DNA of 64,000 nt from Eremomyces bilateralis CBS 781.70. Its lineage: Eukaryota. The translations under genes and the position numbers were made by a program. Below the pieces are notes generated by a model. That model saw only the letters and a list, made by a program, of their open reading frames with translations. It made no database searches and was not told where the DNA came from. Below, piece after piece: positions 2,580-60,859 of this stretch. Position 1 is the stretch's first letter; the number at the start of each line of letters is the position of its first letter. The stretch is from assembly GCA_010015585.1 (NCBI GenBank), contig ML975175.1, one strand, 5' to 3'.

Positions 2580-3339
2580 GACGATCTCATTATCGAGCCT
2601 AATTTCTCTGTTGCCCATGATCAGCTAGATTCCATGTTGGCAATATCGAACGCATCGTACCGAGGTCCAGTACATTTCCCCCTCGACTCGTGTCTAGCCC
2701 TAGAGGCGACTTGCATGTCGGGCAATACTGCGACTCGAATTCGCGGATGTACTCGTAGAAACAAGCTTCATGTGCGACGTGGGCGCAGGACAACTGCAGG
2801 ATCCGCTCGCCGCGGAGGGTGTGTTCCAATGGCTCTTCGCATACGGCGCATTCGGCACCGATAAAGGTCCGATCTCGTCGGGTCCGCGAGCGTTCCTGGT
2901 CTAGAACGCTTGCCATGCCACCTCGTCCCGATCGCGAAGCAGCGGCCGACTTTTTGGCGTGGTATCGGGTAGCTTGGGAGGGTGGGCGGTCGTCGGAGAC
3001 TCGGGAGGAGAGGGAGAGTGGTCGAGAGTCTGAATAAAACATACAAAAAAACTCGAATCAATATCTGAATCAATTGACGCAGCTCACACCAAATTCCAGA
3101 AGCTTGTGGCGAACAACCATTCAGAGCAAAGAAAAGGGGAAGTAAGTACTGTGACTCTCTTCTGTCTTAAACTCCACCGACTTGGAGGGGATCTTGCGAT
3201 TGGAGGTCCCCGATGGTCGAGAGGGACGATCGCGCTCCTTGCTAAGAAGACCGAGGTCGTAGAGGCTGGACTGGACTTCGGAGGCTTGGAGACGTTTCAA
3301 TGTGGACTTGCTGACTCCGTACTCGTTGTGATGCGACAT
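1..3339 (-). CDS. RING-H2 / PH / von Willebrand A domain scaffold protein (Far1/Ste5 family), multi-exon, 3' end outside the window
   Basis: RING CAVCEEPL...SCAHVAHEACFYEY...CPTC (~2700-2860); PH-like FGKLRLHGQIRVGK...ECYLFTEMLICVKEKK (1640-1864); vWA HVPLDLVVVIPVSSSMQGLKINLLRDTLRFLV...MGLVTFG read manually at ~1130-1265. GT-AG introns at ~2608-2660, 1865-1916 and 1584-1634. The 5' exon (3339-3150) is tentative; alternative starts are 3042 or MASVLDQE at ~2916. Confidence 0.8.
2542..2579 (-). repeat. (CAG)n microsatellite encoding a polyglutamine tract
   Basis: Pure GCT/CAG run inside the scaffold gene exon; translated as the poly-Q run followed by PPP. Confidence 0.95.
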
Positions 3340-6300
3340 GTGGAAGGTGAGGTGGCGGGAAGAAGCAATTAGGTGCGTAGTATGAACGGGAGCAACGAGT
3401 ATTTGAGCCGGGGCGAGCAGACGTGGTTCAGTCTTCAGATCGGTTTCAGACTTTCAGTGTTAGCGTTAGCGTTGCAAGATGCGCAACGAAGCGGGTCTTA
3501 CAGCCTACAGGCCCCAGACGGCCCAGAGAAAGGTAGAAGGGGGCGAGCGGGCGGGAACCAAGCAGCACGAGGCGACTCGGGCGAACGCGAGGGGGGCGAA
3601 TATCATTTATGGGAAACCGATAATACCAGAGGGAAAGGTTGGGGTAATCCAGTTAGGTCAAGAGTCAAGAATCAAAAATCAAAAATCAAGACACAGCGGA
3701 GGACGGAGGATAGGACGGTGGGATGGTGGACTCATGGAGTTTGTGGACGGTCGGTGGTAGCAAGTAAGGGGATGAAACCATGGTTTCTGCGATGCTGCAA
3801 CAGAAGGACGGAGGAAAGACACGGAAAAGCATAAAACGGCTTCAGAACAGGACAGATGGAGGAGAATACCGGATGAGGAATACCGGATTCGAACTCGGGG
3901 TCCTTGTCTCCCGGTACAGTACATAGTACCGTAATTAGGATGTGTAGGTACCTTAATAATATGCTAAATATTATACTTGGTACTATTATTATCCTTGCTA
4001 CGTATGTACCTTACCTGTAGGCAAGGAACTAATTATGGTGGTTTTGTTTGCTGGCTAGAGACGGTCAATCAACAATTCAACATGCCTTACTCCTTACTCC
4101 TTATTAGACCTTACTGGCAAGTAACGACTTATTTTTACGAGAGTTGCGGGGACTTCGTACGGAACAATCAGAAGAGGTGGTGTCGTTTTGCCTTCGCGAT
4201 TTTGCCATTGGCCATCCACGTTGGTGGCTCCAGCAACATAATGGTGGTGGAGGGGCGAGACCTGAGTCAGTGTCAGTACCAGAGACCAGAAGACCCGCCA
4301 GAGACACTGGGGCCCCTGCCAGTTCAGGCACCCCTCCCCTGCCCATCCAGGCACCCCATGTCCACTCACCAGGGCCTCGACAGGGAGACAGGGGCAGTTG
4401 GACAGGGAGTGTCTGGTGCTCAAGTCCCTACTGTAAACTGTACCTGTACAAAGTTCAACTGCTCATCAGCTCATGCCTCCAGTCTCCACATTCCACTCCG
4501 CGCTTCTTCTGTCACCTTTCCCGTTTCCTGCCACCATCCAATATGCAGGATCCGGCAACCAGCAGGCACCTGCCACCTGCCACCTGGGAACGGGAGTTTC
4601 GAACGGGAATGTACCAGATCACCAGCACCATGTGTAAACTCACCCCTAGCTCTCGTCCAAACGGTACCCGTCCGAACTATTGAGATACCCACAGGCCACA
4701 TTAGCTTTGGAGACTGCGGACCTCATCGCGATTCGCTTCTGTCATATTCTTGTCCAACTAGTGCGAACTTTGGTTGAGGGCTTGGGGCTAGTAACTCCGC
4801 GTGTTGGTGGTTGGGACTTTTGGAGTAAGTGTCAAGATACCTTATCAAACTAGCAACGAACAATCTCTGCTGGGTAGGGACATGGTCTCGAGAGTCGAGC
4901 TCCTCTGCGAGTCTACATGAAGTCTCCTACCTCCAAGAGTCCGACCAGGTTGTCTTAAGGCTCGAGCAGCTAAGATCAACCATTGATACATATTCCATAT
5001 CATGGCCGGTGTTTTCCGTTGCCCATATTCCGATGTCTTCTCCAGCATCCGTGCTAATCTAACGTGTGCCCTAGGAATAGGATTGGCTAATTCGTTAACG
5101 CTGTCAGTGTCGACGGATTCTCGTGCTTGGATAATAGACCCTCTCGGATATGGGGAAATGGGGAAAGCATGGCGATCGAATATTGACCCATTCGCTCATC
5201 GTTCGTTAGCTATGGTGCCAGTGCGTGCCGTAGCGTGTCCATGAGAGGCTGAGAGCGTGGTCGTCTGGTCAATGCATCACGGGCCATGGGGAATGGGCCA
5301 CAATTCACCAATCGCACAAGGCTGGGAGCCTGGGGGCTGGGACCAATGCCTAGCAGCCTTGGAACAGTGGCGCCAGCTTCCACGAGCCTCGGGCTTCACT
5401 TGACGCCGGATCCATGGCATGATACTTCCACCTTCCTCGATCCTTCGACGTCCAGCGGAAAGTTACATTGTCGAGTGGAGGTGCCTGATGGACAGGGCAT
5501 CATGAGGACAGGGCTTGTGGCAACGGCGGCCCGTCCAAGCATCTCCCATGCGGGATATCATACAGTACCAGTGACCAGACCATATCTGCTGCACGGTCAA
5601 GCAGATGGTCCCTTAGGAAACCAACATTATAGTCCCAGCGATCCTTATGTCGTTCAGGACTTCAGGCATGGCCTTATTTATTGGCACTCCTGTACCGATG
5701 CCAATATGCTTGGCGGGGAGTAGATCAGAACCTTGGACTTCCGAAAGAAGCTGGTTCCGGAGGTCGACGATTCGGAATATGGCTGATCAACGACGTTTTT
5801 CCCCAGACGGGAGATCGGACATGTGCATTGTTGAAGAAATCAGTTTAGATGGCGTGGCACGGTGCAGCGGAGCCGAGCATCCGTCAAATTCAATGTTCAA
5901 CTCTTTGCTCTGCACTCTTCAATGATTCAATCATCGACGAGTGAGGGGTTTCAGGCCCGACATCCCATCAGACGCGCTGCAAAATTCATTTCTAGTGCTT
6001 CATTGGATGACGGTCTCTCGGGTTCAATTCACCTGGCTGACAATTTCATGAGAGAAGCGCGAGAAGACGCTCAGAACCAAAATGACCATGCCCATCATTG
6101 GCTCTTCCAATTCGTTGATGCAAGCTCATCTCAATGAGTGAGGTCAGCCGATACGCGCATACACCTTTTTCCAAGGCATCGTGGCTGTGCAGGTTGGGCA
6201 TGTACGTAGTACGGATTCCCATGGCAATTCCGTGATTTTAAGGTTCCAAGCTCCGAACCCGACGGATTTTGAACGAGCGTGGACTCGCACAAGTCTCCCG

Positions 6301-43095: not shown

Positions 43096-44645
43096 ATGGC
43101 ACTGCCTGTCCCTGGCTCTCCTGCTGCATCATGGGCAGTATATCGTCAGAAGCTGATAACCGCCTTGGAAGGGCAAAACCCTAGGGTCCTGATCGCCTTC
43201 TGGCTATTCGGTTAGTGTTGCTCCCTTTATTGTTCCCTTCCAGATGCTATTGTTCCCTCTATTCCATGAACCGCGACACCACACTCAACGGTGCGATATC
43301 ACGAAATCCTCGTCGATATCAATCTGGACCTGCCTGATTGACTTGCGTACGGCTCCTAGGCCTCATCAACAATGTCCTCTACGTCATTATCCTCACCTCC
43401 GCCCTCGACCTTATCGGCCCCCTCCCGAAAGCTCTCATCCTCCTCCCCGACATCCTCCCAGGCTTCCTCTGCAAGCTGATCGCACCCTACTTCATCCACC
43501 ACTTCCCATACTCCCTACGGGTCCTGATCTGTGTCTCCCTCTCATCCACCGGGATGCTCCTCATCGCCGTCTCGCCACCCTCTCACAACCCCGTGTCCAT
43601 CGCCGTGAAGCTGCTGGGAATCATGATGGCGAGCCTCAGTAGTGGAGGAGGGGAGCTGACATTCCTTGCACTTACACACTTCTACGGGAAGGGGAGTTTG
43701 GCTATGTGGTCGTCCGGGACAGGAGGCGCGGGGATCGTCGGCGCGGGAGCATATGCGCTGGCCACCGTGACAATCGGGATGTCGTCGAGGACCGCGCTGC
43801 TAGTGTTTGCAACGCTTCCAGCGGTCATGTTCGTGAGCTTCTTCCTCATATTACCGCGAGATGCCTTGGAGACATCAAGCGACCTCCGACAACGCTTGGA
43901 TTCCGGGCAGGACGAGAGCACCGAGGAGCAGGAGGCCTTTCTCCCATCACACTCTCCCTCTCACGACGACGACGACGAGCACGGTATATCCCAAATCGAC
44001 ATTTCCACTGCTCTCACGGCATCGGCGTCGTCCATCACCCCACTGACATCCAAACCTCTTCACTGGACTGCCACCCTCCACTCCCACCTCCAACGGGCTC
44101 GCTCCCTCTTCCTTCCCTACATGCTCCCCCTCCTCCTTGTCTACATCTCCGAATACACCATCAACACCGCCCTCTTCCCCGTCCTCCTCTTCCCTCCCCA
44201 TAGCCCCCGTACCCCCTTTACCCACCTCCGCTCCCACTACCCCACCTACTCCACCCTCTACCAAACCGGTGTCTTCCTCTCCCGCTCCTCCCTCCCCTTC
44301 CTGCGCATCCGCTCCCTCTACGCCCCGACCGCCCTCCAGTCCCTCAACTTTCTCGTCCTCCTCCTCCACGCCCTGTACGACTTCCTCCCCAGCTTCTGGT
44401 ACGTCGCGCCCATCGTGTTCTGGGAGGGGTTATTGGGGGGACTGGTGTACGTGAGCACGTTCGCGCGCATCGCGGAGGAAGTGCCGAGGGGGGAAAGGGA
44501 GTTCAGCTTGGCGGCGACGAGCGTGAGTGATAGTGGAGGGATTTTGGTGAGCGCGCTAGTGAGTATGGTGTTGGAGGTCGCAGTGTGTGAGTGGCAGGTG
44601 AGCCAGGGGAGGCGGTGGTGTCGGATGGTGAAGCCTGCTGGGTGA
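43096..44645 (+). CDS. BTN1: Battenin/CLN3 vacuolar membrane protein (intron ~43211-43359)
   Basis: AFWLF|GLINNVLYVIILTSALDL, SSGGGELTFL, WSSGTGGAG, EYTIN, YQTGVFLSRSS and EGLLGGLVYVSTF motifs. Confidence 0.95.
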
Positions 44646-49555: not shown

Positions 49556-50783
49556 CTACCCCCACGAGCTGCGAATACGGTTTCCCTCTAGCCGGACGAC
49601 CTCCTCACACCGCCAGCGCATCTCAGATATCCTTGAGCGAATTTGCTGCTGCGTAATACGCCTCCACTCGCGTCGAATCGCCTCTTTGAACTCCTCTACT
49701 GTTTGCCAGTTCCCACCTCGTAGGCGTTCCTTTATAATCTGCCAAATTGCCTCAATAGGGTTGAGATCTGGTGACTGCGCAGGATGGGGTGGGATTGAGA
49801 TACCTACCGCGCGTTTTGCATGCGCTGCTAGATTATTCCAGCTCCGCGTCCCATGGGACGGATCACCGTCTTCTTGTAGGTAAAAGACATGCTTATATTG
49901 CGCCTCGAGCGCCTTGATATGATCAATATGCTTTGGGAGGAAGTTTTGGGTATAATACTTTAGCGTCATCGAGTTTCCTTTGATCTTGATATCGGCCTCA
50001 AGACTGCCCTTTTCAGCGGCTTCCCATGCGTCTTGTACGGCAGCGAATTGTTCCGGGGTCTCGACACTTGATTTCCGAGGTCTCCGAGGTTTATACGCTC
50101 TTTTGGCAGCTGGTTTGACTGGGTCGGAGTAGAAATGGAAGGGCCCTTTTCGATCGTAGGAGATTCCGGCTGCAACGTGAACCGTCACGTCAAGGGGGCT
50201 ACCCCGAGTCTCCTGTATTGATTCAAGGCGTCGAGATTCGCCCGGGACCGTAACTCATATTCCTGTTTATCGGCGAGCTCTCTCGAGTTGAAATGGACTT
50301 CGTCTGTAAAGTAGACCCTTTTCCACCACTGAGTAAGTGTCTTGCCCCGGTGCTCCTCGCCGTAGCCCTTTCGGATCCCCTTATTTATATCACGTATAGC
50401 CGTAGTGCTTGGATTTTTATAGTGCCTAGCGTTAAGCCGTTTTGAGAGGTTCTGATGGAGTGTTGATACCCCAACGCCTAGTTCTTTCGCTTGGTAGTCG
50501 ATGTCCTTATCGTAGAGAGGTTCCTGTGGATCGAGGAGGCGCTGTAGAGTCCGGTTATCGAGTTTACGAGGTCGCCCTCGACGTTTACTTAACCCCCGTG
50601 TACGTTGTACAGCCTCTGGCCCGAGTTCTTTGCGATTCTCAAGCCATCGGATACCTGTAGATGGTAGGATCTCAATACCCTTTTGGCGGCAGATTGAACG
50701 AAAAGAACGACGATTTTTAGACTGGTCGTATAGCCTAAAAAAGACTACTCGACGAGGAGAATCGTATTCTTGTCTTTTTTGCA
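49556..50783 (-). pseudogene. Tc1-like DDE transposase with a single frameshift near 50248
   Basis: GRPRKL, VYFTDEVHF, LQEDGDPSHG and HPAQSPDLNPIEAIW motifs; the two ORFs join as YELR/VPGESRRLESIQETRGSPLDVTVHVAAGISY if one base is restored. Confidence 0.9.
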
Positions 50784-51636
50784 TGATCCGATAAGCATTG
50801 CTGAAGATATTGATGCAAAAGGATTGAGGAAGCAGATATATCTCAGCTGCCAAGACCACTGTTCCGTCAATTTTCACAGTCACAAGCATGTGGTGGTGGT
50901 TTGCGTGGAATGTTTGCATTTTAATGATTTTACCCACCACGGATATCTCGCTCTCATTCCTCCCCCCTTTCCCTCTCTCCTTTCCTTCTTCTTTAGAGCT
51001 TATTTCTAGCGAATCAACCTGTTCAAACGGCTCCCTGAGTGATCCAAGGGTTCATCGATACGGATACTGGCTACTTGGTTGGTGGCTGAACTTGGAGCGC
51101 CGTTCCGGAACCTCCGGTTGGTGCCTGAGTTCACGGACGGAGGGACCTTGAGCACGGAGCAGTCATCAAGCACTCCCCCAACAAAACGGCTTTTCCGGTG
51201 TACAACTTTGGAAGCTGGAGAGTCTGTTTAGATTTACCATTTGGCTCTCTTCATTAGAGAGACGTCTCCAGAGCAAACCTGAATCTAACTAACATCAAGC
51301 GAACATGCAAAAGAGTTTCGGTGGTTCTGTACTCTAGTTCAAGCAATTCTGAGTCTATATACACTGAGCTCGCTCTTCGGAGGGTAGCATACACAGTAAA
51401 GGATCTACTCCCATGTTAATACTTATACGGAATACGAGTCGCTTTATTAATGCAACTTATCAAGTTAATGATCGCCATTGCGGCTGAATGTTGCTCGAGT
51501 ATATTAACCAAGCCACTCGATTGATTTTCAGTCATTGGCGCTGAGCCTCTTCGGAGTTCAAGTTGCGATTCACTTCCTACAAGCTGAAAACTTTCCGTTT
51601 ATTAACTACGTCGTTCCTTTATCCTGACCCTCAACA

Positions 51637-53956: not shown

Positions 53957-55161
53957 TGCTTCACAATCCTCTAGCTGGAGGAATAGAATGAGATAGAAGT
54001 AAAGGGAGGAAAGAGCGGAATAAATCTGAAGAAAGAAGCCGAAGAAACGGCGTAACCAAAGGATAATACTATGGGTAGAGTCGAGAGAGAGAAGCCAAAG
54101 ATGTTCACTGCGAGCAATGAGCAGGAGGATAGACTGATTCCGTCCCGTCTTTTATAGCCCTCAATTTCCAACATTATTAGCGCTAAGGGATCCCCCTCAA
54201 AGAGCTACTAAGCTCGTTGGCCCTGCGCTAACATCCAGCTGCGGCGTGCCGCATGAGAACCATCCTCTGCTCTCAGCACGTTGTGGATAGCTGATCAAGA
54301 ACTGAGTGGACGACAAGCCCTGACTTGCAAGTGGGCATTGAGAACCGGCTTAACCGCCCAACATGACCAGGTCAACTCACAGAGAACTCTCGTATTTGGT
54401 TAGGGCGTTTGAAGACTCCGTGGATCCTTCGTGTTCCTTTATGCGAGCTGGAGTTCCAAGGACTCCTGCCACCTCCGAGTCGGACAGCTTGGCCAACCCG
54501 AGAGCGGTGGAAACGCATGAAGCGCCTAAAACCTCAAGGTCGAGATGTCCATGCTGCGTTCCATCGCCGTGGAGCAAGTTCATGCATTACGCACGAACAC
54601 ATCCGAGTTCCAGCCATATCCCAGGCTCGAGTCCGCGTGATGGGGTACGTTGCCAAGGTAGCGAGCGACGATGACGGGGCAGTGCGTGTTCCTAGGACGG
54701 CTGGAGCAATTGGCGTTGAATGGTCAATCTCATCTGCTTGAGGAGCACCCGTTCAACGAGAAGCGGACAAAATCAGTCAGTCTTAACAAGCTGCTGGGCT
54801 AGATGGTGCGATTAAGGGGCCCTCTGCTATCAAAATGCGGTGGTTAAGGGCTATTATCTAATCCTCAAGTCTACTTCGATAATCAAGCAGTTCTGTACTA
54901 AATTCGCTGTTAGTAGGGGAAAAGGCGGTCTTGTAGTAGTAGCGGGTTACCAAACGGCACAGTAGCAAACATGCAGGCCTCCTCACTCACTTCCGGGAGA
55001 GCGCAATCCCAGAATCCCGGGGACAGACCGAGTTGGGTTCCGTACACCAAGTTAGAACGGAAGGGCTTAGTAAACCCTAATCCGGTCTGGTTTCGAGGAG
55101 CAGCTAACATAATCATGCTGCCCTCAGATAAGGATCGATTGTACGGTGGCACACAAAGAGC

Positions 55162-57444
55162 CTAGCTCAAGGTCACTTGCTGCATTTCCTTCACAGATGC
55201 AGAACCTCTCCGCTTGGTCACACACGCATTGGGGTCTCTCTTCCTCTTTCGGTTTGCTGAGATAGTGCCCAGTGCGGGGCGTTGCTCGATGAATTGTGCC
55301 CGCTCGAAATCAATCAGCATCACTTTGCCGGTCTCCTCATTCCACAACATGTTGCGAAGCGCGAGATCATTGTGAACGATCCCGAGGCTAGCGACCGCTT
55401 GGATTGAAGAGCGAATCAACCGAAGAATCCGTGGCCGGTTCTCGGTGGTAAGGTGCGTGGATAGGAGCTCTCCACCAAAGCTCATGAGCATCATGTGATC
55501 AAGCTTCGCAATTCCCTCGTAGTAATAGGGAGTGCTCAGGTCGATGTTGCCCAAATAAACTGGCACAATGCCGCTGCCCTGAATCGGACGGAGGCTGTCG
55601 TAGAGGGTAGCCTCGTGTTTCAGGCGGTGAGCAAAGTCGGTGGCTTTGGCGGCGATGGTATACCCGTGAGATCTGAGTCTGATGCGAAATAGGATGCCGC
55701 ATGATCCAGGAGGGCCTATGGGCATGCAGTCGGTATCAAGGTCTTCTGAAAGTTGCCGACGAACGAGACTAACGAAGGTAGATAAACAAATCCGATGATA
55801 GCTCTTCCCATGGTCTCGCGCATTGGGACATGACATGTCAAGGAGACCCCGGTTGACGAGGCCAAGGAGGCACTTTTGAGTACAATGCTGTCCACCACTC
55901 GACGTTCCTCCGTGAAGATCCGCACCGGATGATGAGCGGGCGGTGGCCTGGGTGCGAGCGGAGTGTCGGGGTAAAGGCCGCTCTCGACTCGGAGTATCCG
56001 GATCAAGCTCATCATCGCTTGAATTTTCGTGACTCTGCAGTCGCACGCAACTAGATGAGCCGGTTGTAACCGGTCGTCGTCGGAGGCGCACAGGAGACAT
56101 GCGAAGGAAGCCATCGTCACGAGGTGGCCGATACTCTGACGGTGGGGCGTCCTGCAGGGGGATTGTATCGAGCAGTTCGGCGTACACCACCTCCCAGCTG
56201 TTCAGTAGGTTGGCAGCCTGGGATCGCCAGCTCTGGTTTCGAGGCGGCGACTTCAATGCTTGGAGCGTAAACGCGAGCATTTGCCCAACCGCGGTCAGAT
56301 GCAGACGATTTGGGTCGTCCGAATCCGGCACCCATTCCGTGGGTCCCCCAACGTCACCCGTCGGGACCGATAGGAAGTAATGGACCGTACCGGGGTCCAT
56401 CTCCGGCACCCGGAGGAAGATGAACGCTTCGCCGGTGCAAACGCACCCGTATTCTACCCCAGCGTTGATCATATATGAAAACGCTTGTGTAATGATTGCG
56501 GCAATCAATCGGCGGAAGCGGTTCCGCGGAGCATCGGATTCTTGATACCGAATCACGTCCTCAAGTTTCATGTCATCCAGGCCTTCGTAAATGTACCCAA
56601 GGGGGAGATTATGCGGTGCTTTGTATTCCATGACGAAGGCAGGGATGCGGTTCTCCTGGTTCCGAATGCTCTTGTTGTAGACGCAGAATTGATCTGCACG
56701 AGGACGGGAGGATCGTATGTGAGTTGTCGGTGCCGATTCTGCCGGGTGCACCGCCATCGATTCGTTGGCTTTGGCATGTAGGCATGCCGACCGCCGTGGC
56801 GGATTTCCGGAGAGGGGAAGTTGGTCGATGCCCTCTGCAAGCTGAGTGTCAGGGCATAGCGCGTTGGCGTGATTCTCAAAGCTGATCAAGCCCTGCAGAC
56901 CAAATTCCTGCTGAAGTCTTCGGTCGGTGTTCATTTGTTGGATGATCAACGCAACGGGGTCTTCGACAGTGGTGCGCTGGAAATGATGCAGGTCAAGCTC
57001 AGAACTCAGCGACCGTTTTCGGACCGTTTCCCCAGACTCTTGCAAAGTATGTACCGAGGTGAAGTGCCGCTCCGAGACAAATCCCGACTGCATCAAAGTG
57101 TTCCAAATCGCGTCCTGGCGGGCTGGGAAGTCCTCCTACTCGAGCAGCTTCTCGGCTCGAAGCTTGTTGTTCGCGTTGGCAGGGTCACCCCGTGTCGACC
57201 TGGTTGCATCGGTCTGGACGGTGAGGCCGGAATGCAGGTAATTGTGGCAGGCATCGAGATATTCGGGTAGAGTGCTTTTCCGAGTGCTAAATTCAGCCTG
57301 CTCTTGGGCCCGCTCCGCTTCTTCGCGTCGACGTTGTTCCTCCTGCCATCGACGCTGTTCCTCCTGCCATCGACGCTGTTCCTCCTGTCGTCGGCTCTGC
57401 TCCTCGAAATAGAGCGTTTTGTAGTCGGGCGACTCTTCCGCCAT
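55162..57444 (-). CDS. Spok-family (spore killer-like) coiled coil-nuclease-Cys cluster-kinase protein, 760 codons, with one in-frame TAG at 57136-57138
   Basis: The two ORFs are in the same frame. EEQRR coiled-coil repeats; TLPEYLDACH; PD-(D/E)XK-like RADQFCVY...FVMEYKAPH; TQAFSYMI..GVEYG...TGEAFIFL; HCTQKCL...CPN...H; kinase GSCG, LQG-like IQG..VPVYLG, HNDLALRN, IDFERA; C-terminal RKRKR. Confidence 0.85.
57337..57387. repeat. 21-bp tandem repeat encoding a heptad coiled coil (QEEQRRW)
   Basis: TTCCTCCTGCCATCGACGCTG repeated about 2.5 times in the Spok-like 5' region. Confidence 0.9.
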
Positions 57445-57744: not shown

Positions 57745-60700
57745 ATGCGACTGCTTAGCACTGGCCCTGGCGGAAGCTTCAGCCTGCACTGCTTCACCAG
57801 CAACATTCCTAGCTATGCAATCCTTTCGCACACCTGGGAGGCGGATGACCAGGAGGTTACATTCCAAGATATTATGAATGCCGCGGGAACCAGCAAGACA
57901 GGCTATAGAAAGATCGAGTTTTGTAAGGAGCAAGCAGAGAAAAACGGACTTCAGTATTTCTGGGTGGACAGCTGCTGCATCGACAAGTCAAGTAGCGCCG
58001 AGCTCACAGAAGCTATCAACTCGATGTTTCGCTGGTACCAGGATGCAGCAAAATGCTATGTATATCTCTCAGACGTTTCAACAGGAAAGCACACCCGATC
58101 TTCTAAGCTCCTATGGGAACCGGCGTTTAGACAGGGTCGATGGTTCACCAGAGGTTGGACACTACAGGAGCTTCTTGCTCCGCGATCAGTCGAGTTCTTC
58201 TCCCGAGATGGCAAGCGACTTGGTAACAAAGACTCGTTAGAACAGCAAATTCATAAGATCACTGGGATTGCAATTGACGCACTTCGAGGACATCTTTCTC
58301 AATTCAGCGACGAGGAGCGAATGGCATGGGCAGAAAAGCGAGAGACCACGAAAGAAGAGGATCAAGCATATTGCCTCATGGGAATCTTCGACGTCTCCCT
58401 ACCAGTCATATATGGCGAGGGGAAAAGAAAAGCACTCCAGCGGCTTCGAGAAGCGATCGATAAGCGTTCAGGCGATACGCAAGGTAATTTAACCGCCAAA
58501 TTATTTAGTTAGCCGGCTAATCTGCGAAGTGGAATGGAACAACAAGGAACGGGACTGTATGCAAGCCCTGCGTACTTCGGCTTCCGACTACGAGCAGTTC
58601 AAGGAGAGGAACTCTAGCCGACTTAGAGATACCTGTCAGTGGGTTCTCCATCATAAAAATTTCCGAAACTGGAAAGACAGCAGCTCCTCAAGTCTTCTTT
58701 GGATATCTGCGGATCCTGGATGCGGAAAATCGGTTTTTTCTAAATCTCTTGTCGACGAAGACTTGAAAAATATGGACGCTCGCACAACTTACTACTTCTT
58801 CTTCAAAGATGACGACGACGTACAGAAAAGTGCAGTTACAGCTCTTGCGGCACTACTCCACCAGCTCTTTCGGCGGAAACCAACACTTATTAAACATGCT
58901 ATTTCGGATTTCGCCGCTAATGGACATCAACTTTCTCAATCATTTCATACACTCTGGGGGATTTTAATAAAGACGGTGGCTGATCGGAATGCCGGGGAAG
59001 TCTTTTGCGTCTTGGATGCCCTCGACGAATGCACAAAAGCAGGGCAGTATCAGATTATTAACGCTCTCAGTTCATTCTATCAGCAAGCAAGCTCCGGAAA
59101 CGATTCATCTCGACTCAAAATATGTATCACTAGTCGTCCTTACCCAGACATCGAACGGCGCTTCACCGATCTTACTTCTAACTTTCCTACGATTCGGCTA
59201 CACGGCGAGCAAGAGTCAGATGAAATCAGTCGTGAGATCGACCTAGTCATCAAATGGAGAGTATCCCAACTCGGATCTGAGCTTAAGCTTAATAATTTAG
59301 AACAGTCAAATCTCGAAATAGAACTGTTAAGAATGAGCCACCGAACATACCTCTGGGTAACGCTCATTTTCGATATCATTCGTAAAATGATTCGACCGAC
59401 AAGTCGGAAACTGAAGGCAGTTATTAGTAACCTTCCGTCTACAGTTGATGAAGCATACGAAGCGATTCTTACAAAAATCGAGGAAGATGATCGACCACAA
59501 GCGCGGAAATTGCTCTATATCGTTGTTGGAGCAACCAGGCCTCTTACACTGAAGGAAATGAACATCGCTCTAGCTATAGAAGACCGTCATCGCTCCTACG
59601 ACGACCTTAAGCCTGACCTTGACGATAAAGCGAGGTTTGAGGCGTCGGTGACACACCTCTGCGGGCTCTTTGTGACTGTAGTGGATCGAACGGTCTATCT
59701 AATCCATCAGACCGCAAAAGAATTCCTTCTCGCGAAGAGCGAGGCCGCTGCTATTGGATGGAAACATTCTCTTGTTCCAACGAATTCCGAGACCCTTATG
59801 GCCAGAGCATGCCTTACATATCTTTCATTTACTGAATTTGATGGAGCGACAGATCAGATCTCTGCAGCAGTCAAACACGACTACTTAGATTATGCTGCCG
59901 GTTCTTGGGCTGCTCACTATCGAAAAGCACAGCATAGTGCAACCGAGCAAATGTTGGACTTGGTTTTCAGAGTCTGCGATACCCGATCCCAGCGGTTCAA
60001 GACTTGGTTCGATATATACTGGAAGATGGCTTACCAGTGGCACTCTAATCCACAGTTCACAAGCATTCTGATGGTAGAGTCATATTTTGGGCACGAGGGT
60101 ATCGTCAAGCTGCTGCTCGAGGCCGAGGCCGAGGCCGACTCGAAGGATGATAACGGTCAGACGCCGCTGTCATGGGCGGCCGAGAACGGGCATGCGGGTA
60201 TCGTCAAACTGCTGCTCGAGGCCGACGCCGACGCTGACTCGAAGGATAACAACGGTCGGACGCCGCTGTGGAGGGCGGCCACGAACGGGCACGAGAGTAT
60301 CGTCAAGCAGCTGCACGAGGCCGAGGCCGAGGCCGACTCGAAGGATAACTACGGTCGGACGCCGCTGTGGAGGGCGGCCGAGAACGGGCACGCGGGTGTC
60401 GTCAAGCTGCTGCTCGAGGCCGAGGTCGACGCTAACTCGAAGGATAACAACGGTCAGACGGCGCTGTCGTGGGCGGCCGCGAACGGGCATAAGAGTATCA
60501 TCAAGCTGCTGCTCGAGGCCGAGGCCGAGGCCGACTCGAAGGATGACTACGGTCGGACGCCGCTGTCGTGGGCAGCCGAGAACGGGCACGAGGGTATCGT
60601 CAAGCTGCTGCTCGAGGCCGAGGCCGAGGCCGACTCGAAGGACGATGACGGTCGGACGCTGCTATGGTGGGCGGCCGAGAACGGGCACGAGAGTATCGTC

Positions 60701-60859
60701 AAGCTGCTGCTCGAGGCCGGCGTCGACGCCAACTCGAAGGATAACTACGGTCGGACGCCGCTGTGGTGGGCGGCCGCGAACGGGCACGAGGGTATCGTGA
60801 AGCTGCTGGAGTCCTTTAGCACTCTAGGATTTTCGGTTTGCCCCCCACCCACTACCTAA
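57745..60859 (+). CDS. Fungal NLR: HET - NACHT - ankyrin repeats (intron 58484-58529)
   Basis: HET: YAILSHTW, YFWVDSCCIDKSSSAELTEAINSMFRWY, WFTRGWTLQELLAP. NACHT Walker A ADPGCGKS, Walker B VLDALDEC, ITSRP, IHQTAKEFL. Seven near-identical ankyrin repeats. Confidence 0.95.
60087..60810 (+). repeat. 99-bp tandem ankyrin repeats with high internal conservation (~7.3 units)
   Basis: Repeating unit GGGCACGAGGGTATCGTCAAGCTGCTGCTCGAGGCCGAGGCC...GACTCGAAGGAT...GGTCGGACGCCGCTG. Confidence 0.95.

Follow-up and report, generated by a model that had tools for sequence, protein, structure and literature searches.

We analysed a 64,000-nt window of DNA (contig ML975175.1, assembly GCA_010015585.1) from Eremomyces bilateralis CBS 781.70, a Dothideomycete of the order Eremomycetales. 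Its minus strand carries a gene of the Spok family of spore killers that is interrupted by a single in-frame stop codon at a conserved tryptophan. An initial annotation had described this gene as a candidate meiotic driver activated by RNA editing. The gene and its transcript comprise the following features, given by their positions in the window.

55162..57444, minus strand: Spok-family frame of 760 codons plus a terminal TAG (55164-55162), with one interruption at codon 103 (from translation)
57328..57405, minus strand: 21-nt tandem repeat, 3.7 copies, encoding EEQRRWQ repeats; the variable N-terminal repeat and putative coiled-coil region (from repeat detection)
57136..57138, minus strand: in-frame TAG at the near-invariant Trp103 codon, within domain 1 of the Spok architecture (from translation, alignment and the RNA contig)
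57091..57093, minus strand: internal ATG, Met118, start of the 643-residue database model P0002
56134..56706, minus strand: domain 2, PD-(D/E)XK-like, residues 247-437, with D251, E273-x-K275 and Q320xxxY324 present (from invariant columns and an AlphaFold2 model)
55795..55884, minus strand: Cys/His cluster C521-x3-C525-x13-C539-x5-H545-x4-H550 (from alignment and the published motif)
55270..55722, minus strand: kinase-like domain, about residues 575-725, with HND693..N698 and DFE712-714 present (from Pfam APH, Foldseek and alignment)
54316..57364, minus strand: RNA contig (record 5), 2996 nt, depth 112, spanning the TAG, extending 226 nt upstream of it and ending inside the tandem repeat
54898..54950, minus strand: 53-nt spliced intron, GT..AG, located 3' of the terminal stop (from the joint 54897/54951)

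Translation bore out the frame that the initial annotation had read, with 760 codons and one internal TAG. The coding part runs from 57444 to 55165, and its sole internal stop (57138-57136, codon 103) falls between KLLE and EDFPARQDAIW; in translations of the full window protein (P0001), this codon is rendered as X. We aligned the protein with 31 homologues, giving 32 sequences in all, and found that D251, E273, K275, Q320, Y324, C539, H545, H550, D693, N698, D712, F713 and E714 are invariant, that C521, C525 and H691 are conserved in at least 90% of sequences, and that the window protein carries all of them, including the strings EYKAPH (E273-Y-K275), C539-PN..H545..H550 and H691-N-D693. The nuclease-like, Cys-cluster and kinase motifs are thus intact, as had been claimed.

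The column of codon 103 is itself nearly invariant, with tryptophan in 30 of the 31 homologues and a gap in the remaining one (P0041), in agreement with the initial annotation, according to which homologues read W-x-D-F at this place. At the DNA level, a metagenome scan returned 65 related loci, 59 of which cover codon 103: 56 have TGG, two have TAG (L030 and L058) and one, a spurious hit on the reverse strand, has TTG. Also noted by the initial annotation, the internal ATG at 57093 opens a 643-residue open reading frame (ORF) that is letter-identical to the public model P0002. Its Met118 begins 43 nt past the TAG and is conserved in at least 90% of the homologues. A scan of the window for further frames interrupted by a single stop yielded 27 pairs, which were mostly chance frames in GC-rich DNA and carried no information.

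The homologue search returned 581 proteins at E <= 0.001, with the best match at 64% identity over the full length (Zopfia, Lojkania, Xylaria, Diaporthe and others). The Pfam family PF27653.1 (SPOK2_N) is annotated on P0002 and on every homologue listed, mostly together with kinase families, and the kinase part matches Pfam APH (1.7e-5; 25.1 bits compared to a cut-off of 23.2). An AlphaFold2 model of the 643-residue part, with a predicted local distance difference test (pLDDT) score of 70.5, matched protein kinases in Foldseek (E about 5e-6). For residues 242-440, modelled at a pLDDT of 73.3, the best fold match among 48,161 chains was a weak one to the nuclease domain of the BpuSI restriction endonuclease (Z 5.9, root-mean-square deviation 4.1, 107 aligned residues), followed by HsdR (3h1t, Z 3.9) and then other endonuclease-like folds, also with weak scores. 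Foldseek returned no match at E <= 0.001 for the model of residues 242-440, and a sequence search of solved structures gave just weak kinase matches (E >= 0.04).

In excerpts of the paper that describes SPOK3 (PMC6660238), the protein begins with an N-terminal coiled coil, which is the variable nucleotide repeat, continues with domain 1, of unknown function, and a PD-(D/E)XK domain, and goes on to a QxxxY motif, a Cys cluster and a kinase. Residue K240 of the PD-(D/E)XK domain is needed for killing and the kinase residue D667 for resistance. The combination of PF27653 (SPOK2_N) with a kinase, in a domain order and with motifs that fit this description, upholds the assignment of the window gene to the Spok type. 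Judged from its sequence, the gene is a Spok-family member on a distant branch. It adds one more gene, a broken one, to a family already known. The close Spok clades of Vogan 2019 comprise Sordariomycetes and one Eurotiomycete only, according to the same excerpts (PMC6660238).

Transcript evidence was drawn from the assembled contigs of one public run (X1), for which the tissue is not recorded and in which minor variants are dropped, so that an edited minority would be invisible. Sampled words of the window were found in this run at a fraction of 0.91. We took the run as complementary DNA (cDNA), because its contigs carry 53- to 55-nt GT..AG joints and leave intergenic gaps. The RNA contig listed above matches 54316-54897 and 54951-57364 without a single mismatch or gap relative to the DNA, and its consensus letter at 57137 is the unedited A. 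As the contig is unbroken and unchanged through codon 103 and spliced elsewhere, the UAG is present in the mature mRNA and cannot be explained by an intron or by an error of assembly. Consequently, the Spok-family gene is transcribed and spliced, and its mRNA carries UAG at codon 103. We read the contig's end at 57364 as an assembly break and not as the transcript start, because it lies inside the tandem repeat.

The data favour a nonsense allele of recent origin in a selfish gene family with high turnover: the copy would have been disabled not long ago and continues to be transcribed. We assign this explanation a probability of roughly 0.7. It starts from the stop, its position at a conserved tryptophan, the family membership, the intact motifs and the transcript that contains the stop. 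One G-to-A substitution at the second position of the Trp103 codon would recently have disabled the gene, either as a spontaneous transition or through a very light repeat-induced point mutation (RIP) event. With the promoter, the splicing and the remainder of the frame still in order, the mRNA would be made with UAG at codon 103. Ribosomes that start at 57444 would stop after 102 residues and would mainly release a 102-residue N-terminal peptide, and the full-length protein would no longer be made. The killer and resistance domains would then be missing, unless re-initiation at Met118 yields small amounts of them. Excerpts of PMC4150071 and PMC7082219 describe E. bilateralis as a dung fungus with cleistothecia and without an asexual morph. 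This biology suggests that the fungus may self; a spore killer would then meet no sensitive partner, and a driver with little to drive against should decay and be lost.

Disabled copies are frequent in this family. In-frame stops lie within the aligned part of 20 of the 65 related metagenome loci, and they recur at conserved Trp codons: W103 in L030 and L058; W114 in L032, L039, L053 and L058; W371 in L012, L050 and L063/L064; W417 in L039, L050 and L053; and W701 in L030, L039 and L053. Each of the five conserved Trp codons has been struck in two to four loci, and therefore W103 is not special. Copies with few lesions also exist, with two stops in L030 and three in L039, all of them at Trp codons; L058 has five stops and frameshifts. 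The window protein departs from the consensus at only 4 of the 149 columns conserved in at least 95% of sequences (T57S, P97A, K279N and H685A), ranking 84 of 113 (median 1.3%). So few departures, without accumulated decay, fit a young lesion. According to excerpts of Vogan 2019 (PMC6660238), Spok genes duplicate, diverge and then pseudogenise.

Several observations weigh against a nonsense allele. Past the TAG, 657 codons remain open and all catalytic residues are kept, which would also be expected of an editing-restored or otherwise functional gene. When codon 103 is counted as a former TGG, the change TGG>TAG makes up 8 of the 77 one-step transition routes to a stop in the window frame, with 193 transversion routes besides; a random nonsense change would be TGG>TAG in about 5-10% of cases, and before priors the type of stop favours editing about 10-fold. 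The message is not obviously removed, its contig depth, a poor measure, being similar to that of the neighbouring genes. Finally, neither the indices nor the private changes bear a RIP signature, and RIP was therefore rejected as a demonstrated cause of the TAG.

The RIP indices of the window gene are 0.43 for TpA/ApT and 1.25 for (CpA+TpG)/(ApC+GpT). At conserved nucleotide columns, 19 of its 43 private changes are C>T/G>A, compared to a share of 0.29-0.50 in intact controls and 0.56-0.81 in hypermutated (RIPed) controls. Neither measure contains the excess of C>T/G>A that RIP requires in the gene. One RIP hit could nonetheless have been the origin of the stop, since TpG>TpA is the canonical context. 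The RIP-like damage that the initial annotation had seen nearby proved weak, with both indices passed by 4 of 64 one-kb windows and none of these having a GC content below 0.46. We found no second Spok copy within the 64-kb window, and no second RNA contig at 90% likeness or above over 55208-56943.

We considered whether the gene instead yields a shortened protein of 643 residues from the ATG at 57093, which would lack the repeat and most of domain 1, keep the nuclease-like, Cys-cluster and kinase parts, and act as a resistance-only or altered killer form. Such a product is unlikely, although several observations speak for it: Met118 is well conserved and closely follows the stop, its nuclease-like and kinase parts are confident in the predicted fold, and a relative (P0056, 649 residues) has been modelled from the same Met. 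Partial Spok copies have also been suggested to be former resistance genes (Vogan 2019, in excerpts of PMC6660238). However, the RNA contig reaches at least 271 nt upstream of the ATG at 57093 and contains further ATGs, and a 102-codon upstream frame would be present if the RNA 5' end reaches 57444. Because of these upstream ATGs and the possible upstream frame, initiation at 57093 should be inefficient. Moreover, domain 1 is highly conserved in the family, which argues for a need of it.

Three database models of relatives are affected in this same region. Those of P0041 (Alternaria panax) and P0108 (Phaeosphaeriaceae sp.) skip exactly the segment around Trp103, and P0056 starts at the same internal Met as P0002. 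These skipped or late-start models may hide stops at or near the Trp103 codon.

The initial annotation had proposed that the driver is gated by editing. An enzyme of the ADAT type (a tRNA adenosine deaminase) in the ascoma would convert UAG to UIG, which is decoded as UGG (Trp), and the full-length killer and antidote protein would appear in the sexual stage only. We regard this as improbable, even though the gene resembles an editing target in several respects. The UAG coincides precisely with the position where 30 of 31 homologues carry Trp, the remaining frame is intact and a stop of this type would be expected about 10-fold more often with editing than with random nonsense change. A U at -1 is the known editing preference (excerpts of PMC11156358), and it is present as the initial annotation had noted, being given by the codon. 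There are also precedents. According to the same excerpts, 70 further Fusarium graminearum genes require premature-stop correction, and RNA-seq shows that the conserved early stop of one gene in the Podospora Spok block undergoes editing (partial text of PMC8092012). Editing control of two unrelated spore killers, rfk-1 and SKC1, which the initial annotation had mentioned, is indeed in print (10.1101/2020.12.30.424869 and PMC9972908, in the portions available).

The phylogenetic position of the host stands against editing. In excerpts of PMC11156358 and PMC11087585, reports of A-to-I mRNA editing in fungi are confined to Sordariomycetes (Fusarium, Neurospora and Sordaria) and Pyronema, and no editing was found in Aspergillus nidulans cleistothecia or Botrytis apothecia. 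The Ame1-Tad3 interaction is described there as having arisen in Sordariomycetes, with an independent origin proposed for Pyronema. As the present host is a Dothideomycete, a further independent origin would be needed. The literature sampled on both topics held no report of A-to-I mRNA editing in Dothideomycetes, and among titles and abstract openings on Spok and RNA editing there was no report of editing of a Spok gene.

The RNA contig has A at the site, though a consensus contig drops minor variants and the tissue is not recorded. The small hairpin loop CUC[GAGUAG]GAG that the initial annotation had folded by hand is the minimum-energy fold of a 31-nt piece only (-7.7 kcal/mol, z -0.09), where 88 of 200 shuffles fold equally well. 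In 61-nt and 101-nt pieces, other pairings replace it and the adenosine lies elsewhere (z +0.31 and +0.25, respectively); the hairpin is therefore not robust and no better than shuffles. Nor is the stop conserved across relatives, as far as metagenome loci, which are not close-relative orthologues, can represent them: beyond the 56 loci with TGG, TAG occurs only in copies with further stops, namely L030, which is hypermutated and has two stops, and L058. Given the Dothideomycete host, the unedited consensus RNA, the weak hairpin and the absence of the stop from intact relatives, the editing gate is not supported, although editing in ascomata keeps a small probability. We weighed editing low despite the stop type because of a low prior for the class, the high rate of pseudogenes in the family, the unconserved stop and the unedited consensus RNA.

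If editing did occur here, the gene would provide the first example both of an editing-gated Spok gene and of mRNA editing in a Dothideomycete. Fungal mRNA editing would then have had yet another independent origin, or a far more ancient one than is currently assumed. The range of fungal editing is named as an open question in reviews (excerpts of PMC11156358). The value of the locus is as a clean test case for sexual-stage mRNA editing beyond Sordariomycetes and Pezizomycetes, in a culturable, cleistothecial Dothideomycete.

Translational readthrough of the UAG, which would give some full-length protein in all tissues, is very improbable. The frame is open on both sides of the stop. However, basal stop-codon readthrough is usually very low, and on inspection by eye we noticed no readthrough signal after the UAG (GAGGAC). 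A sequencing or assembly error, which the initial annotation had raised and which a single base in a single genome might suggest, deserves hardly any weight, since the depth-112 RNA contig has the same letter, though this RNA probably comes from the same strain and a mutation that arose in culture would be shared.

The metagenome loci displayed a hypermutation pattern of their own. Loci L027, L029, L030, L039, L042 and L053 (coding part at about 3001-5184) are paralogues or alleles of one Spok gene, and nearly all of their differences from L027, the intact sibling, are C>T/G>A changes in the context 5'-[C]C-3'. Compared to L027, C>T/G>A changes make up 54 of 54 differences in L030, 135 of 157 in L039 and 176 of 193 in L053, and the CpC context accounts for 53 of 54, 126 of 135 and 161 of 176 of those changes, respectively; of the 290 CpC sites available, as many as 161 are altered. 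Such hypermutation is RIP-like but prefers CpC over the usual CpA; listings of the literature on RIP and CpC dinucleotides named no CpC preference of RIP. The CpC context explains the TGG>TGA stops in the hypermutated loci. As an explanation of the TAG at Trp103 of L030, it holds only partly, because the Trp103 change is the lone CpA-context change of the 54. Some stops are shared among these copies, with W701>TGA common to L030, L039 and L053, and W114>TGA and W417>TGA each common to two of them. Either one mutated ancestor or repeated hits at the same CpC sites would account for this sharing. Separately, L007 and L041 are two intact Spok-family copies no more than about 7 kb apart on the same metagenome contig, with overlapping ranges, as in a local duplication.

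The surroundings of the Spok gene in the window contain further transcribed features. The RNA contig extends about 850 nt beyond the Spok stop (54316-55161, minus strand), where it includes the 53-nt intron and holds no convincing ORF. Either the 3' untranslated region is long and bears an intron, or the contig has fused the Spok RNA with another RNA of the minus strand. A NOD-like receptor (NLR)-type gene with HET, NACHT (NPHP3_N) and ankyrin parts lies head to head with the Spok gene (57745-60859, plus strand), about 300 bp from its start codon. Many RNA contigs match the NLR-type gene at 90-95% likeness, and therefore expressed paralogues of it exist. On the other side, ORFs with a DDE_3 transposase domain (49556-51051, minus strand) lie about 4 kb from the Spok 3' end; the RNA contig that covers them has a depth of 578. 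A CLN3/btn-1 gene at 43338-44645 is 100% identical to the btn-1 protein recorded for E. bilateralis CBS 781.70; its next matches, mostly from Dothideomycetes, reach at most 56% identity.

As a young nonsense allele, the window gene would illustrate a commonplace phase of a selfish gene's life, a copy just past its first disabling mutation and still expressed, and it would remain ordinary unless editing were found. Compared to SPOK1-4 of Podospora anserina (Grognet 2014, Vogan 2019), it has the same pairing of SPOK2_N with a kinase and matches the order of parts: repeat, domain 1, D..ExK with QxxxY, Cys cluster and a kinase with its catalytic Asp. Residues D251, E273, K275, Q320 and Y324 would correspond to SPOK3 219-240, K240 and 294-298, as inferred from the published description and not from an alignment. 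The Cys cluster of SPOK, C-x3-C-x13-C-x5-H-x7-H, differs in its last His, which in the window protein stands at x4 (H550), while the rest fits. The gene is nevertheless distant from SPOK1-4, which we likened to it by description; its closest relatives are Dothideomycete and other proteins at no more than 64% identity. Its frame is broken at codon 103, and killing activity in its branch is putative.

The premature-stop-correction (PSC) genes of Fusarium graminearum and Neurospora (PUK1 and about 70 others), together with rfk-1 and SKC1, have a UAG in place of a conserved UGG within an otherwise intact frame and a U at -1, as does the window gene. In contrast to them, the window gene belongs to a host lineage for which the literature sampled reports no mRNA editing, its consensus RNA is unedited, its stop is unconserved and its hairpin is not robust. 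Pseudogenised Spok copies, including Spok-psi-1 of Podospora, the clade II copies annotated as pseudogenes (both in excerpts of PMC6660238) and the metagenome loci L001, L012, L030, L039, L053 and L058, have in-frame stops, often at Trp codons, like the window gene. Compared to these copies, the window gene has one lesion, carries neither a frameshift nor a hypermutation signature, and is both transcribed and spliced.

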